Assembly (NCBI GenBank): GCA_029717555.1 | Contig: JAMDHS010000107.1 | Span: forward strand, 1 to 64,000 | DNA: 64,000 nucleotides | Source: Peribolospora baueri | Lineage: Eukaryota | Direction of reading: 5' to 3' | Shown here: positions 15,253 to 22,707 of the stretch, piece by piece | Layout: each line of letters starts with the position of its first letter | Numbering within the stretch: the first letter of the stretch is position 1 | Translations under genes and position numbers: made by a program | Notes under the pieces: model-generated | Database searches by the model: none | What the model was told of the DNA's origin: nothing | Seen by the model: only the letters and a program-made list of their open reading frames with translations

Positions 15253-16357
15253 TCATCGGTCCTTCTTGTCTTCCTCTCCCTCCCCTCCTTCGCCGTCGCC
15301 ATCGACCTCAAAGCCCATTTCCACATCGAGCAGCCTACGAAACTTGTCGCCGTCGAAAGGCGGAAAACGCACGACGCCCTTCCTTTCCGTCCGCCTTGTC
15401 GATCCTTCCAAACGCGCTTCTGGGTTCCCGTCTTCGGAGCCGCGGGCGGATGTGGCGGCCGTGGAGTCGCGCAACTCTTGCGCGATTGATTCGAGCGTCG
15501 ACAGGAGTGCGCTGGGCACCGGTGAAACAGAGCGGGCGGGAAAAGAAACAGATCAGAACTGAAGAACTCGGTGTCGGGCTAGGTGCTACTCTCTCGGACA
15601 AACGCCCAACCGGGCAGTCGGAACGTGTCGATAGATGTGAAATACAAAAGCAACCGTGCTCACTCGACCTTAGAAGCTATGAGATGACCGCGCTCGTGCA
15701 AAGCGAGGGCCAGCTCGGCCTGGTGATCGTCGGCAAGGGTGCTGTTACTGACGACGACGAGGCGAGGAGTCGGTGGCGGAAGGCGGAGAGCTTCGAGAAT
15801 GGAGCCCGAACCTTTGTTGACGGTGAAATGTGAGGGACGAGATGGAGGTTGAAATCGTCCATGAGCACTAGGGGACGAATGGGACAGGAGGGAAAGTCGC
15901 ATTGGGCCTGGACGCAAGCACACTCACCAGCGTGACTGACGACGACGTCCGCCATCTGCATATCATCCCGCAGGCCCTTCTTGTAACCGTATACATCCAA
16001 CTCCAACGCAGGCCCTTGGACTTCCACCTCCACTGCCTTCTCACCATGCGACGCTCCCCCCGTTGATGACGCTTCTGAACCTTTCTTCTTCATCTTGCAA
16101 CGCTCCTTCCAACGTTTCCGGACCTCGCTCATATCGCTCTTACCGCATTGCACCACCACGCGTCCGAAACCCGCTCGGACGAGACGGTCAAGGCTGTCCG
16201 GCGAAAGTACGGTGAGGATGAGCGAGTCGAAGCGGGTGGAACCGACGGTGCAGAAAAGAGAGAGTAGCGGATCGCTTTGGAGGCCCGTTTCGGTGACCTG
16301 ATATGTAGGGGTATTGCTGCTACTGCTTGCTTGCTCCATTTCGCCCCTTTCTTCCAT
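15253..16357 (-). CDS. ALG13: UDP-N-acetylglucosamine transferase subunit ALG13 (GT28 C-terminal domain)
   Basis: LFCTVGSTRFDSLI, VVVQCG, ADVVVSHAG|SGSILEALR, LVVVSNSTLADDHQAELA; last exon FPPFDGDKFRRLLDVEMGF; start 16357 or 16339. Confidence 0.9.
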
Positions 16358-16578
16358 ACTGGAAACTAACGTACACGGCGGACAAACAGGGCATGAGTCC
16401 TGCAATCTGGAACGACTAAGGCGAACAAACCAGGAAAAAGACGAAAAAGACTTTGCTACATACAATCCTGTAAGATGGTCTGACGAGATTGGAGCAGCGT
16501 GAACAGGAGCAAATTGTGTGGTCAGCTTCGATGTTCACTCATTTAACGCCGACAAATAGAGAGGTATTGGCAGAAGAG

Positions 16579-16675
16579 GAATCAGATGGTGGTGCATATC
16601 CAGGGTTATGGCTCCTCGTCTTCTCGAAGAAAGACTTGCCCAACAAATAACTATGGATAGTTTTCATCATATAAA
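16579..16675 (-). ncRNA. Box C/D snoRNA, snR55-like (predicted 18S Um1269, yeast numbering; SNORD33 equivalent)
   Basis: C box ATGATGA (16664-16670), D box CTGA (16582-16585); guide ATGCACCACCA complementary to conserved 18S UGGUGGUGCAU with the D+5 rule on U1269; lies in intron 16480-16710. Confidence 0.85.
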
Positions 16676-16826
16676 ATCAAAGGGTGGAAGGCCTCGACCG
16701 ATCTGCTCACCTCTCGGACCGTAATGAAAACTGCAGGCGACGTGAGAAAAAGGAGGACAAATGTCAATAGGATGGACGAGACTCAGAACCAACGCGCACG
16801 GTGAAAAGTTCCCCCGCGCCGGGCTG

Positions 16827-17316
16827 GGATCAGAGAGAAGATTAATCCGTCACGGTCCGACCACACCCCTCGGGAAGCTCGCCCTTGCCTACCAAGACGG
16901 TAAACAAAGGCTCGCCTCTCCCGTCTGCGATTCGAATGCATTGTACCTCCACGAGCGCCGTCTCTCGCCGAGTGCAGCCGCAACAGGAGCATCTTTCCAT
17001 ACGTCCCTTTCTCGCCCGTCCACGCTCACAAGTCATCCCCGTTTCCTCAGACAGAGCTGAGTAGTCCGTGAGAAGTCCGCGCGAGCGTGACCGACGAGAG
17101 GTCCGAACAGAAAAAGACCCCGACGGAGGGCGAAAGAAGGTACTGTGAAGTGCACAACGACCGAATAGCAGAGGGGGGCGACCCTCTAGCCAACCACCAT
17201 GCACACAGCCGCTGAGAAAACCTCGAGCGGTCGGGGGCAAGTGACGGAGAGGCGCCGCCGCGAGAGGCGAGGAGGCCGGTCTCGGAGAATGGATATACGC
17301 TTTATGCATCATTTGA
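16827..17316 (-). ncRNA. ~490-nt intronic guide RNA, apparent composite box C/D-H/ACA, U6-targeting (mgU6-47/snoZ30-like D guide)
   Basis: C box ATGATGC (17306-17312); D box CTGA (16830-16833) preceded by TAATCTTCTCT, an 11-nt antisense to U6 AGAGAAGAUUA; long-range stems (17243-17254 with 16913-16925); internal H box ACAGTA (17141-17146) and ACA (16942-16944); lies in intron 16731-17355. Confidence 0.7.
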
Positions 17317-17484
17317 CGGGGGGTTGTGATAGAATGGAAGGACAATGACACTCACAATTCAACTAAGCCAAGGTGTACTGCGGACCTTCGTGGACGCAAT
17401 GGATGCAGACAAAAGGTGCCAAACTTCGGTCAGCCAACCAGTCGACCCAACAAAGGAAAAAGACCCCTCGCGACCTCGGCGAAT

Positions 17485-17574
17485 AGATCAGTTAAAGGTA
17501 AGCTTGGTATAATGTTTTCTTCAGCTTGTGATGCAGAAGCAGAACTGATTGTATCATGATGCTCATCATTTGGA
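17485..17574 (-). ncRNA. Box C/D snoRNA, snR61-like (predicted 25S Am1133, yeast numbering)
   Basis: C box ATGATGA (17563-17569), D box CTGA (17488-17491); guide CAGTTCTGCTT before a D'-like CTGC, complementary to 25S AAGCAGAACUG; flanking intronic stem CCCCTCTCGACCTCG / CGAGGTCGCGAGGGG; intron 17378-17660. Confidence 0.85.
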
Positions 17575-17777
17575 CCGTATAGGTCACCGTGGTCGAGGTC
17601 GAGAGGGGCCCAAAGAAAAGAAGTCATAGAATATGTGGAGCGAAGGCAAGTGCCACTTACGAAAATTAAGGAACTACTGCGATGCAAATCTGGTCGATGG
17701 CAAGCAGGACCGCGTAAAACAATGACGTGTTCGTCAGTCTACTGTCGTAAAATGGCACATGCGGTGATCCAAGGAAT

Positions 17778-17954
17778 GCCCTCAGAAACGAAGAACTGAA
17801 AACACCGAGAACGAAGAGAAGCGAGAACGAGTGAGCACGTTGTGGTGGTCTGAAGCAAATCTGAGACATCGGAATGACAACTCACTTCCATTGTTTTGGG
17901 CTCCCACCGCGCGAGACCGCGCGTCGAGCCAAGTGATAGATATCATCCACGGGC
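17778..17954 (-). ncRNA. Box C/D snoRNA, snR57-like (predicted 18S Gm1572, yeast numbering)
   Basis: Terminal stem GCCC/GGGC; C-like box TGGATGA (17943-17949), D box CTGA (17782-17785); guide TTCTTCGTT pairs with 18S AACGAGGAA (one G-U) with D+5 on G1572; intron 17690-18013. Confidence 0.65.
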
Positions 17955-18085
17955 GTGATGGACAGCGAGACAACAAGGCGTCGCTCGCGTGGGAGGAAGT
18001 TGTTAATACTCACCAAGTGCGTTGACGTTGCTCCTCACTGGGAGGAGATGGAAGGGAAAAAGAAAAATGGAGCGCCGTGGAAGGT

Positions 18086-18097
18086 AAATTTATAAAT
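18086..18097 (-). promoter_or_regulatory. TATA box of the snoRNA host transcript
   Basis: TATAAA within the palindromic AT tract AATTTATAAATT, ~30 nt upstream of a pyrimidine-rich putative start and ~75 nt upstream of the first donor. Confidence 0.6.
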
Positions 18098-18589
18098 TTA
18101 TTTCTCTGCGTGCGCGAGCTGCGGATCGGAGGATCGGAGGACGCGTGCGAGGGAGCGGAGACAAACGGAAATATGCGGGGTTAGAAGCACTGACGCCGAT
18201 GCTACTGACGCCGAGGCGAGATAGGATTGCTGTCGGATGGAGGGAATGGTTGAGCGGCAGATCAAGCAAGCAGCTCGACAGTCTCACTGGCACTACACGT
18301 CACTCTCCCCCCGTTTGCCTCGCTCGTCTATGCTTTCTGCCTTTTGTCTCTGATTGTCAACCCCCGCGCTTGTGCGACATCAACGCCGAGCTGAGCCCAG
18401 ATCCGATCCAGCGGTGCCCCGCGTCGATCTTTCGTGATTGACTGGGTTCGAACGACGGTCGTGGTTTTTGGCCCACACGGACCCTCCGCCCACACGGACA
18501 AGGAGGTTGACCTTAGGCCGGACCTTGCTTGCGCGAGCGTCTTTCATTTTGGCATCGCTGACTGACGAGGCATCAGGGTCCGGCTTGGC

Positions 18590-20909
18590 ATGGAGATAGA
18601 CGGGAAGACCGGCGGAGGCCGGTCACACTCCTTCAAATATCCATCTTCTTCGCAATTGTCCTTGGGTCGGCGGCCAGTCGCCGCCGGAGGCGCAGGAAAT
18701 AACCTCTCCGGCGGCTTTCATATGAACGATCCTTCGTCGGTGATGGACACTGGCAGCGAGAAGAAGAAGGTTGTTCGCAAGTGGCTCCCGCTGAATGCAC
18801 GAATACTCGCCCTGGTCGCCCTCGTGGCCTTCGTCTTCTTCGTCACTCGGCTCGCCTTCGATGGAGACTCTCCGTCGCCTTCCCACGTCTCCTTTTCCAA
18901 TTTTCACACCCCGTACGGTCTGCGAGATCTCTGGACCGTCGACACGCTCTCCTCTTCCTCATCTGCCCCGCATCAATATCAACCTTACCTCCCGCTCAAC
19001 ACCAGTGTACCATGCCCCTTCAAGTTCTGTCCGACCGATGGAGAGAGTGACGCTCTCTCTCGAAAGTACGGTAGCGAGGCACTTGGTAGGACGAGGTTGT
19101 TCGAAGGGTCGGGAGAACGTGTCAAGGATGCTATTCGCAAGGCCATGGCTGGCAGGCCGGTCACCATTGGCGTGCTTGGAGGTTCAGGTGAGAAAACCAC
19201 TTTGGCCGTTTGGTGTGGAGCGTGAGGATGTGTTTGCTTGTTCCTTCCCTTATCTTTAAACTGTCATGTTGTGACTGTCTGCAGTGAGCGCCTGCCATGG
19301 CTTGCCAGGCGATGACCCTCTCTCGGAACAAGGTTACCCGCGCCGTTTACACGAATGGTGGAACTCCATCTTCCCACATCCTGCCAATGAGCTCACCAAC
19401 GGCGCCGCTCGTAGGACCAATACGGCCTACTTCTCCTTCTGCTCTGCACATCATCTGCCGGATAATCTTGATCTTGTCATTCTCGAGTTTGATGCGGACG
19501 ATCCAAAGTGAGTTCAATGAAGGGGGGACTTGTCCGACCGAGTCGAAGTTTGACTATCCTTGTGGCTGACCGTATTCGTTCGTTCTACTCTCGCAGTCAC
19601 TCGCAGTGGATGTGGTATACCGAGCTGCTTGTCAGGTCGCTTCTCAACCGACCAGACCATCCGGCCGTGGTGTTCCTAGGCCACTTCAGCCCTCAGATAC
19701 AACAACAGTACGGCTTCTCCGGAAGTGAAATTCAGCATAGCGCAGTTGCAACATACTACGACGTGCCGCACATAAGGTGAGTTAGAAAGTAAAACCTACA
19801 GGAAGTAGGGAAGACATCGCTGACAGACGCGCGCTACCTCGTCATTGTCTCAGTACCAAAGGCATCCTCTACAACGAATATATCCGTCACCCGGACGCAA
19901 CGCGCAAGGCCTTCTACATTGACCCGATTCTGCCCAACTCTCGAGGACACGAGCTCTTGGCAGACACGTTGATCGCCTATTTGCAGAGGCTTATTTGCGA
20001 AGTCTGGACGACAGAGTATGTTCGGATGGCGGAAAGGCAGGGGCGAGTGGGTCAAGTCGGCAGGGAAAGGGACAAAGACAAAGGCAGAGCCGTGCCGGCC
20101 GTGAACGAGGCAAAAGCGAAAGAAGGAGCTCGACAGAGGCAAAAGGACCATGTCTTTGCCCAATTAGGCGAGCAAGGCCAGCTCCAAGGCCGTGATGCGG
20201 AGCCGGCCGTCCTCCTCGGCGAGGCGGTAGCAGGCGCGCAGCACGCCCGACCAGGCGGAGGAGGGGGAGACAGCACGCCTTCGATGGCTCGGTCTCGCGT
20301 CCCTCCCGTGCGCCTGTTCGACCTTCCTTCCGACCTGTCGACCTTCCGCGAGCCTCAGCCTTGGTGCGTGACCGCGGACGATCTTATCAACCCTCTGCCT
20401 CCGTCTATATTCGCCGACACGGGCTGGTCCGTGCACCATCCGTCGGAGTCTCCTTACTCTCAAAACGAGGGGGATCGACATTACTGGGTCAGTCGGGAGG
20501 GAGATGCCACGTTGAAAATTCCGATAAGGATAGGCAGTGGCGAGGTGGTGGTGTATTACCTGCAGGGACCGAGGGAAGCGGCCAAGGGGGACGAGGACCT
20601 GCCGTTCGGGAACATACGCTGTTGGGTCGATGACAACTATGACGGAGCTGTCGAGCTGCGAGGCGCAGCGGACATTCCCATGGTGGTGGCCGTCAACACG
20701 TGAGTCACCTTCTCTTTCTGCCCATCAGCTATAGCTTTTCGTCCAGCATCGGCTAAACGAGCCTGAAACCATTTGCTTCTTGCCCGCTCGCTGAACGCAG
20801 CGTGATTGATCGCGGCGTCGCGCCGGGTGCGCATTTCGTCGAGTGCCAGATGCAGGGTGAGCCAGCAGAGGTCAGACCCTTCAAGATTCTTGGCATCTTT
20901 GCGGCTTAA
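18590..20909 (+). CDS. CAP64/CAS3-like capsule-associated protein (SGNH-fold, type II membrane)
   Basis: N-terminal TM; PVTIGVLGGS|VSACHG, WWNSIFPHPANELTNGAARRT, LDLVILEFD, DPILPNSRGH, CWVDDNYDGAV, end FKILGIFAA*. Confidence 0.85.
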
Positions 20910-21149: not shown

Positions 21150-22707
21150 TCAGAGAGCGACGTAAGCCAACGTGACGTTTTCGGTGGTCGTCCTGATGTC
21201 CTTCCATGGACAGACGTCTTTCTCCTCATCCTCGACTTCGTAGCTCCTTCCCGCTGTCATGGCTTCCATCCCCGTTTGAAGCCGCTCGCGAAGTGTCCGA
21301 GTGACCCGTTCGGCCACGGCTTCCCTCTCGTCAGACGACAGCAAGCAGTCTGGCACGGAGAAGGAGAGCAGTGGGTGACCGCTGCTCGCGATGGGTGGCG
21401 AACGGGGGAGAGAAAATGGCCGGAACTCGCGCTCAGCATGTCACGTCCGCGGGACTCAAGCAAATGGGCCGTCATGCCGAACAAGCTCAAGCAATACTCA
21501 ACTGATCCGTGTTCTTTCCTTCCTCGTCTGCAAAGAGCTCGCATCGGAAGAGGACCAGCTCTTCACCCCCGAGGTTGTTCTTCATGCCGTGGTTGTCGTC
21601 GTCACCCGTACCTCCTCCGTGACCGTCGTCCTCGCCTTCTCCCGTACCAAGATCGCCTTCGGCCTCCTTCTTGGCCTCCCCTTTAGAGAGAACACTCCCG
21701 CTGCTACCGGCACCACCAAGTTGAAGGTGGAGCTCCGGTTGAGGTAGAAGGACAAAGATGAAAGGATAATCGAGGAGCCAGCCTGACAAGGATATCATTA
21801 TCGAAGGTGGAAGTAAGGCCGGCGACTGCTCGGTCGGAAGAGCGTTTCGTTCTGAATATGCGTCGGAGACAAGAGAGGTGCTGAAGCGCGGACAGGAGAA
21901 GGCGGAAGACAAATCGAGACGGACGATAGGAGGGGAGAATCCTGGCGCAGAGAGACTCGGGCTTTGGAGGAGAGAGCGCAGGTGTTTCAAGAGCGCGGTC
22001 AAGAGAGGCGGACGAGCGGGCAGCTGTAGCAGGGTTCGTTGGAAGGGACGAATGGAAGGACGAGCGGCAAAGAAAGGGAAGATGAACGAGGAAGCATACT
22101 CGACGGTATTATGACTAGACGCACGTGAGTCAACTCTCTCGCCTACTCACCAGAACAGGTCTCCTCCCGGCTCTAACGTCCACGAAGGCGGCATTATCGG
22201 ATCCCTCGCTATCGAGCTCCCTCCCTATACGGCTTAGGATCAGAGGACGACTGGCGACGAAGGCTTGACCAGTGAGTGGCTCGATGAGAAAGACGATCCG
22301 TTCTCCCACCCAAAGCCCTTGGCTCTGGCTTTGAATTGACGATAAATTGTGAGTCCCTAGATGTTTGGAAAGAGCTTCTAGCTTAGAATGCGTGACCACG
22401 AAGGAGTCAATCAAGTGGGCGGTACTGATAAACACGGGCAAGATCAAGTCGAAGGGGAGGGTCAGTAGGTCCCATTAATCACATGCGATCGTCTACCTCC
22501 TCGAACTCACCGAACACCTAAGGCCACCGCGAGGACGTCCTTTGCGAACCGATCGACAGCTCGAGAACTCGGGATGTCACCTCGGCCACGGCGCATCCTC
22601 TTGCTCCCTCCGCCTCTGGGACCTCGTTGCTTGTTAATATCATTGTGTGCGCTGCTGTGGAGAGATTTGCAGATGCGAGCCTTGAGCTCTTGAAGGACAA
22701 GAGGCAT
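21150..22707 (-). CDS. UPF0739/DUF4504 (C1orf74-like) protein
   Basis: FAKDVLAVALGVR, AFVDVR, LSGWLLDYPFIF, C-terminal ENVTLAYVAL* resemble the family motifs; several introns. Confidence 0.65.

Follow-up and report, generated by a model that had tools for sequence, protein, structure and literature searches.

The spliceosome's catalytic RNA is U6, whose modification in fungi outside fission yeast is known mostly from predictions. An adenosine within the U6 ACAGAGA box is the target of small nucleolar RNAs (snoRNAs) of the box C/D kind, namely mgU6-47 (SNORD7) in vertebrates and snoZ30 in S. pombe (Rfam RF00288; snoZ30a, RF01196), in which an antisense element to the flank of this box sets the adenosine at the +5 position. 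In S. pombe, deletion of snoZ30 abolishes methylation of U6 A41, which makes it an experimentally shown guide (PMC10484740). Here we analyse a candidate of the same kind that lies within an inferred intron of a 64,000-nt stretch of fungal DNA (Peribolospora baueri, contig JAMDHS010000107.1, positions 1 to 64,000), hereafter the window.

The candidate shares with mgU6-47 and snoZ30 the antisense element and the +5 adenosine, but would be ~485 nt long compared with ~100 nt, would carry a 428-nt structured insertion between its D′ and C′ boxes and has no match in Rfam at E values up to 10. The metazoan small Cajal body-specific RNAs U85, U87, U88 and U89 offer a second point of comparison, as they likewise combine terminal C and D boxes with a large internal domain and target a spliceosomal small nuclear RNA. 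The published prediction of a U6-Am47 guide in Neurospora crassa, CD11 (snR53), is a 79-nt RNA whose D′ guide is shared with an 18S site (PMC2780460), whereas the guide described here is linked to the D box and dedicated to the U6 sequence. On the basis of sequence and modelled structure, we consider the locus to be an mgU6-47/snoZ30-type C/D snoRNA of ~485 nt with a giant D′–C′ insertion, a reading to which we assign a probability of roughly 0.5.

A U6 guide element adjoining a D box

All element coordinates refer to the minus strand of the window. The D box CUGA (16830–16833), placed by reading the sequence and by indexing in the predicted fold, is directly abutted by an 11-nt antisense element, TAATCTTCTCT (16834–16844), with unpaired probabilities of 0.69–0.99. 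This element is the exact complement of the established U6 motif AGAGAAGAUUA, which the U6 of this organism presumably shares; position 16845 could extend the duplex by a G·U pair. Counting five nucleotides upstream from the D box leads to 16838, whose partner is the last A of ACAGAGA (base 5 of AGAGAAGAUUA), as the +5 rule demands. An initial annotation of this DNA, made from the letters alone, had already proposed both a perfect 11-nt U6 antisense before the D box and a methylation target equivalent to human U6 Am47, and of these the first is confirmed, at 16844–16834, and the second is supported, through 16838. Within the window the exact 11-mer is unique, and tolerating up to one mismatch gives two matches against 0.50 expected; that it adjoins CUGA inside a host gene for snoRNAs goes far beyond what chance would produce.

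The corresponding C box, AUGAUGC (17306–17312), agrees with RUGAUGA at six of seven positions and lies 43 nt 3′ of the inferred 5′ splice site of the host intron (16731–17355, 625 nt; GTGAGT at 17355, then CTCAC and a terminal CAG at 16731), whose splice sites are read from the sequence. No other RTGATG stands in the intron on the minus strand; from this, from its splice-site distance (35–44 nt in five of the six fungal-like relatives described below) and from the fold, we infer that it is the working C box. The locus thus has a C box near its 5′ end and a D box near its 3′ end, the latter directly preceded by an antisense stretch that exceeds 10 nt. All strings named in the initial annotation are present and stand within 1–3 nt of the places given there. 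The two outer boxes form the sole canonical C/D pair within the intron, with a C-to-D spacing of ~483 nt.

Inner boxes can be proposed on either side of this long interval. A 20-nt candidate first guide (17286–17305) follows the C box and has unpaired probabilities of 0.67–1.00 at 16 of its 20 positions, although nucleotides 17300–17297 pair with the C box in the minimum free energy (MFE) structure; a visual comparison with U6 and 25S motifs turned up no colinear match reaching 10 bp. It is succeeded by a candidate D′ box, CCGA (17282–17285), assigned tentatively by reading the sequence, and CCGA stands likewise after the first guide in two metagenomic relatives (L102 and L114). A similarly tentative, degenerate C′ box, GUGACGG (16847–16853), would lie 13 nt upstream of the D box, at a place where metagenomic relatives show UGACGA, UGUCGA, UGUGGA or UGGGGA.

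A GC-rich insertion with a stable predicted fold

Between the candidate D′ and C′ boxes lies a GC-rich insertion of 428 nt (16854–17281). The 506-nt stretch 16820–17325, which spans the whole element, has an MFE of −229.5 kcal/mol compared with −197.3 ± 7.1 kcal/mol for shuffled sequences (z = −4.53; none of 100 shuffles as stable). In the MFE structure, a short closing helix beside the candidate D′ and C′ boxes leads into three arms: a hairpin, arm A (17177–17259); a long imperfect hairpin of 257 nt, arm B (16920–17176); and a further hairpin, arm C (16874–16918), with a 13-bp stem (16911–16899 with 16893–16881). Arm B ends in an apical CUCAG/CUGAG stem (17061–17057 with 17050–17046) closed by the loop CUCUGU (17056–17051), as pointed out in the initial annotation, and also contains, as paired bases, the two strings that had been read there as an H box and an ACA box. 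Both the first-guide segment and the U6 antisense element are predicted to be mostly unpaired in the same fold.

The composition of the insertion is asymmetric, with a pyrimidine-rich 5′ half (purine fraction 0.35) and a purine-rich 3′ half (0.59). GC content climbs from 40–50% to 65–85% exactly at 17281 and falls again at 16860–16831. We discarded low GC as a marker of functional segments, because the whole 5′ end of the intron is already at 40–50% GC and the signal is thus not specific to the C box and first guide; what is informative is confined to the abrupt step up at 17281 and the trough over 16860–16831. The idea that the insertion is a repeat or a miniature inverted-repeat transposable element gained no support within the window, where blastn found only the insertion itself, all other matches being 24 nt or shorter with E values of at least 0.27.

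The U6 A47-type box C/D guide, seated in a fungal snoRNA cluster, is real and recognisable, and belongs to a known kind of RNA. What would be new, and is unproven, is a structured insertion of 428 nt separating the box pairs. In the proposed RNA, which would accumulate as a species of ~485 nt, the D-box guide would direct fibrillarin/Nop1 to the final adenosine of the ACAGAGA box in U6 (A47 in human, A41 in S. pombe). The GC-rich insert between CCGA and GUGACGG would account for the 483-nt C-to-D distance and, by folding on itself into three arms, would keep both guide segments single-stranded while bringing the box pairs together.

Metagenomic relatives with variable linkers

Scanning metagenome contigs with a 16-mer pattern covering the guide and D box, YTAATCTTCTCTCTGA, yielded matches at 117 loci or more. 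Most of the matches listed resemble chance hits in unrelated DNA, and at least 14 loci read by eye as C/D snoRNAs in which the same antisense adjoins the D box, with C-to-D spans of 77–194 nt and a linker of variable length. These C/D snoRNA-like loci comprise a fungal-like set (L044, L059, L071, L097, L102 and L114), a second set (L002, L018, L077, L091 and L112) and three others (L073, L093 and L030). The fungal-like guides and L030 have in common with the candidate a 12–13-nt antisense by the D box, an intronic context, a D′ box of the CCGA, CCTA, CGGA or CAGA type and a D′–C′ linker of variable length that forms a hairpin. In five of the six fungal-like guides, a GT(A/G)(A/T)G(T/C) motif can be read 35–44 nt upstream of the C box, compared with 43 nt in the window.

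In seven of the nine relatives for which a fold was computed, a long internal hairpin makes up the linker; L044 and L093 have short linkers with small stems only. Since the linker of the relatives is variable and so commonly a long hairpin, a natural reading of the insertion is a larger version of it. The linkers of the fungal-like guides and L030 measure 40–130 nt against 428 nt in the candidate. One locus, L030 (623–816), spans 194 nt from C to D with a ~130-nt interior in several hairpins, and is intermediate between the compact forms and the 483 nt of the candidate; beyond the guide, it does not resemble the window significantly. In another, L039 (1–260; GC 0.69), CTGATGT stands 18 nt upstream of the antisense and D box, and there is no C box in the 234 nt before the contig end; this locus may be either another long-linker form or a chance match.

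The first guide differs between the window and these relatives. In all six fungal-like guides the first guide reads ..TCATCCTTAG.. and leads into a D′ box C(C/G/A)(G/T)A, and this guide is not found in the candidate. Its complement contains AAGGAUGA, which would be a motif of the 3′ strand of the U6 internal stem-loop. If that assignment is right, the +5 rule applied to the TCATCCTTAG guide would pick the A before GG, and a single snoRNA could guide both the A47- and the A70-equivalent marks. In S. pombe, these two U6 marks are assigned to separate RNAs, snoZ30 and sno530 (PMC10484740).

Host gene and neighbouring snoRNAs

The intron holding the U6 guide is flanked by inferred exons of only 22 nt (17377–17356) and 20 nt (16730–16711), as read on the minus strand. 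The preceding intron carries a snR61/Z1-type C/D snoRNA (17485–17574, minus strand; Rfam RF00476, 53.4 bits against a gathering score of 45), and the following intron a snR55/Z10-like C/D snoRNA (16580–16674, minus strand; RF00472, 37.9 bits, E = 0.00076, under its gathering score of 50). By its sequence, the U6-guide element thus reads as sitting between snR61-like and snR55-like C/D snoRNAs in a host with one snoRNA per intron. Across 16468–18040 of the minus strand, micro-exons of 20–22 nt, with splice sites again inferred, appear to alternate with the introns bearing the snR61-like, U6-guide and snR55-like snoRNAs.

According to a published survey, a snR57–snR55–snR61 'cluster II' is widespread among fungi and, in Basidiomycota, lies in introns (PMC3596301); the layout seen here, with the snR61-like snoRNA upstream and the snR55-like one downstream, fits this published arrangement. 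In the first inferred intron (17797–18011, minus strand) we observed a C-box-like GGATGAT near 17955 and an end with CTCAGA/TTCAGA-type motifs and no clean CUGA; Rfam gave no match in this intron at E values up to 10, and its sequence may represent a fourth, divergent snoRNA, perhaps a snR57-type member of cluster II. An open reading frame with a Glyco_tran_28_C domain (ALG13-like, E = 5.7e-09) begins near 16357, ~110 nt past the last inferred intron, so the snoRNAs could occupy introns in the 5′ untranslated region of a protein-coding gene. Two metagenomic loci of the second set, L077 (483–572, 884–961) and L091 (81–169, 458–534), have the U6 guide with a Z223/snR61-clan snoRNA upstream and SNORD24 downstream, repeating the snR61–U6 guide adjacency of the window in lineages that seem very far apart.

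Weighing the long form

A second organism (B), ~99% identical to the window organism (A) with 22 substitutions in 2401 nt, permits a limited comparison. The C box, D box and 11-nt guide are identical in the two. Five differences fall in the RNA: four are transitions that swap Watson–Crick and G·U pairs, and the fifth is a transversion that turns a C·C mismatch (17173/16923) into a G–C pair. Taken from A to B, these substitutions lower the MFE by 6.1 kcal/mol, a value equalled by none of 250 random sets. The comparison is only suggestive.

Several observations weigh against a single RNA of ~485 nt. The substitution test depends on its direction, as the B-to-A change amounts to +6.1 kcal/mol, near the random mean of +7.0, and substitution density within the RNA (5 in 490) is that of the flanks (19 in 1911). 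The fold provides no terminal stem for the C/D element; an external stem between the intron flanks was considered and rejected, because the outer helices change when the whole intron is folded and none makes a clean terminal stem. With the snoRNA folded by itself, the ends of the insert pair beside D′ and C′, but this closing helix is replaced once the intron flanks are included, and forcing the boxes and guides to be single-stranded in the whole-intron fold costs 23.3 kcal/mol. RTGATG occurs 79 times in the window compared with 44.8 ± 5.9 in shuffles (0 of 100 reach 79), so a C-box-like hexamer within 480 nt is not rare by itself; the excess is probably a word bias of coding sequence, which makes such hexamers cheap in this genome.

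Homology searches add to these points. Rfam, run on 15500–19500 at E values up to 10, reported neither snoZ30, snoZ30a nor any other family at 16827–17316. This silence says little, since the metagenomic relatives too score weakly with these models, at best 25.8 bits for L073, where the gathering score is 50. When the 5′ modules of the six fungal-like guides (C box, first guide and D′) are made into an nhmmer profile, it misses the C box at 17312 at E values up to 100, and the best of 18 Smith–Waterman comparisons with relatives, evaluated against shuffles, gave p = 0.04; at the sequence level, homology between the window and its relatives beyond the scanned 16-mer is therefore not significant. 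Length is a further difficulty: 90% of fungal C/D snoRNAs measure 80–135 nt and only the Nc_CD_53 family reaches 200–300 nt (PMC5824354), and ~485 nt would be exceptional. Nc_CD_53 does offer a fungal precedent for a long C/D snoRNA, but it is an orphan and shorter than the candidate.

Alternative readings of the locus

In a rival reading, the intron would in fact be two. A possible 27-nt micro-exon at the apex of arm B (17030–17056), preceded by CTCAC-N8-CAG and followed by GTGAGC (the whole module spanning 17072–17024), would give two introns of 299 nt each and separate the C box and first guide from the U6 guide and D box, leaving the snoRNA non-functional or obliging its halves to re-associate through ~130 bp of arm complementarity. 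This module is built like the inferred junction surrounding exon 4 (16746–16705) and occurs at only these two places in 128 kb (0.48 expected per window; 7 of 100 shuffles give at least two matches), which is a further point against an uninterrupted long RNA; a 27-nt exon would also suit a host with inferred exons of 20–22 nt, and a 14-nt direct repeat ties the GTGAGC site to the inferred real 5′ splice site. Against this, CTCAC and GTGAG are reverse complements and thus favoured in CT- and GA-rich hairpin arms, the CAG and GUGAGC lie within helices of the MFE structure and the pattern was defined once the site had been seen. Neither half has a complete box pair, as there is no CUGA in 17312–17057 and the CCGA at 17234–17231 is CCAA in organism B. 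Overall, we regard a split into two introns as unlikely.

A shorter C/D snoRNA with a degenerate internal C box, in which the upstream AUGAUGC would be fortuitous, is to our minds similarly doubtful. GGGAUGA (17039–17033) and AAGAUGC (16995–16989) would yield RNAs of ~210 and ~166 nt, nearer to known fungal C/D lengths (PMC5824354). L030 shows a relative of 194 nt, and the abundance of RTGATG in the window (79 occurrences) means that the upstream hexamer could be a chance one. However, both internal candidates alter position 2 of the C box, the flipped-out U that is important for binding of Snu13/15.5K. They are, moreover, base-paired in arm B and are not followed by an unstructured guide-like segment, and trimming the RNA to either would leave half of a long helix unpaired.

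It is also conceivable, and in our view quite improbable, that the insertion inactivated the snoRNA and that the locus is a decaying or dead copy, the U6 site being served by another locus or by a snR53-type D′ guide. The equal substitution rates of RNA and flanks would agree with decay, and a guide of the latter type, CD11/snR53, is the one predicted for U6-Am47 in Neurospora crassa (PMC2780460). Yet A and B share intact copies of both outer boxes and of the 11-nt guide, without a single difference in them, and all five A/B differences are compatible with the fold.

The initial annotation had taken the 430-nt interior for an H/ACA domain that also pseudouridylates the Psi40-equivalent of U6, so that one composite C/D–H/ACA RNA of the U85 kind would place both marks. 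The strings on which this rested are present: ACAGTA at 17146–17141, ACA at 16944–16942, CTCTG at 17173–17169 and TCGTT at 17161–17157, the last two oriented for a pocket around the U-A in AACGA-UA-CAGAG. TCGTT and ACAGTA are 9 nt apart, and the 14-nt spacing between target and H box is right. The hairpin–ACAGTA–hairpin–ACA architecture itself did not hold up, as the H-box bases 17146–17142 and all three ACA bases have unpaired probabilities of 0.00–0.02 in the fold of 16820–17325. Folding 17254–16939 as two hairpins with free H and ACA boxes gives −120.0 kcal/mol compared with −138.4 kcal/mol unconstrained, a penalty of 18.4 kcal/mol, and the second hairpin would be 196 nt long. The stem said to close this interior (17243–17254 with 16913–16925) can be drawn with 12 bp and one bulge (overlapping an inverted pair of 84% over 19 nt) but is not part of the MFE structure.

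The pocket fares no better. In the isolated first hairpin, CUCUG is paired within the stem and no pocket opens; because only 8 nt (CUAUUCGG) separate the two pocket arms, the obligatory upper stem is impossible. The pocket-plus-H pattern CTCTG-N4–34-TCGTT-N8–10-ANANNA, defined after the site had been seen, matches twice in the window against 0.17 expected, here and at the unrelated position 22614. In both runs of organism B, a T>C change at 16942 (plus strand) converts ACA to ACG on the RNA strand, and no H/ACA model in Rfam matches 16827–17316 at E values up to 10. The apical CUCUGU loop, which lies in a pyrimidine-rich arm where CT-rich words are common, would target U6 A41–G46 and could not cooperate with the D guide, whose own duplex it overlaps at A43–G46. 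Two of the checks suggested with the original proposal, folding and an Rfam search of minus-strand 16827–17316, respectively bury both boxes and return no family at E values up to 10. The internal domain thus fails every H/ACA test run (the fold, the unpaired state of the boxes, a pocket topped by a stem and conservation of ACA); it is not an H/ACA domain, the locus is not a composite C/D–H/ACA RNA and a single RNA installing both U6 marks in this way is very improbable.

Implications

A bolder form of the ~485-nt snoRNA reading, speculative and in our estimation unlikely, would make it a small nucleolar ribonucleoprotein built on a C/D snoRNA longer than any other modification guide of this class reported from a fungus, with an insert selected for its structure and serving as more than a spacer, for example as a platform for U6-specific chaperones of the LARP7/Pof8–Bmc1 kind that bind snoZ30 in fission yeast. 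In its boldest version, the C and D halves would come from two 299-nt introns and be reunited in trans by ~130 bp of arm pairing, as a split guide RNA.

If the long form is false, the locus is one more orthologue or relic of a known U6 guide. If it is true, a box C/D guide would tolerate a structured D′–C′ insertion four times its own size. It would then widen the search space for snoRNA finders, which assume 60–300 nt, and would serve as a natural scaffold for exploring what guide RNAs are able to carry.

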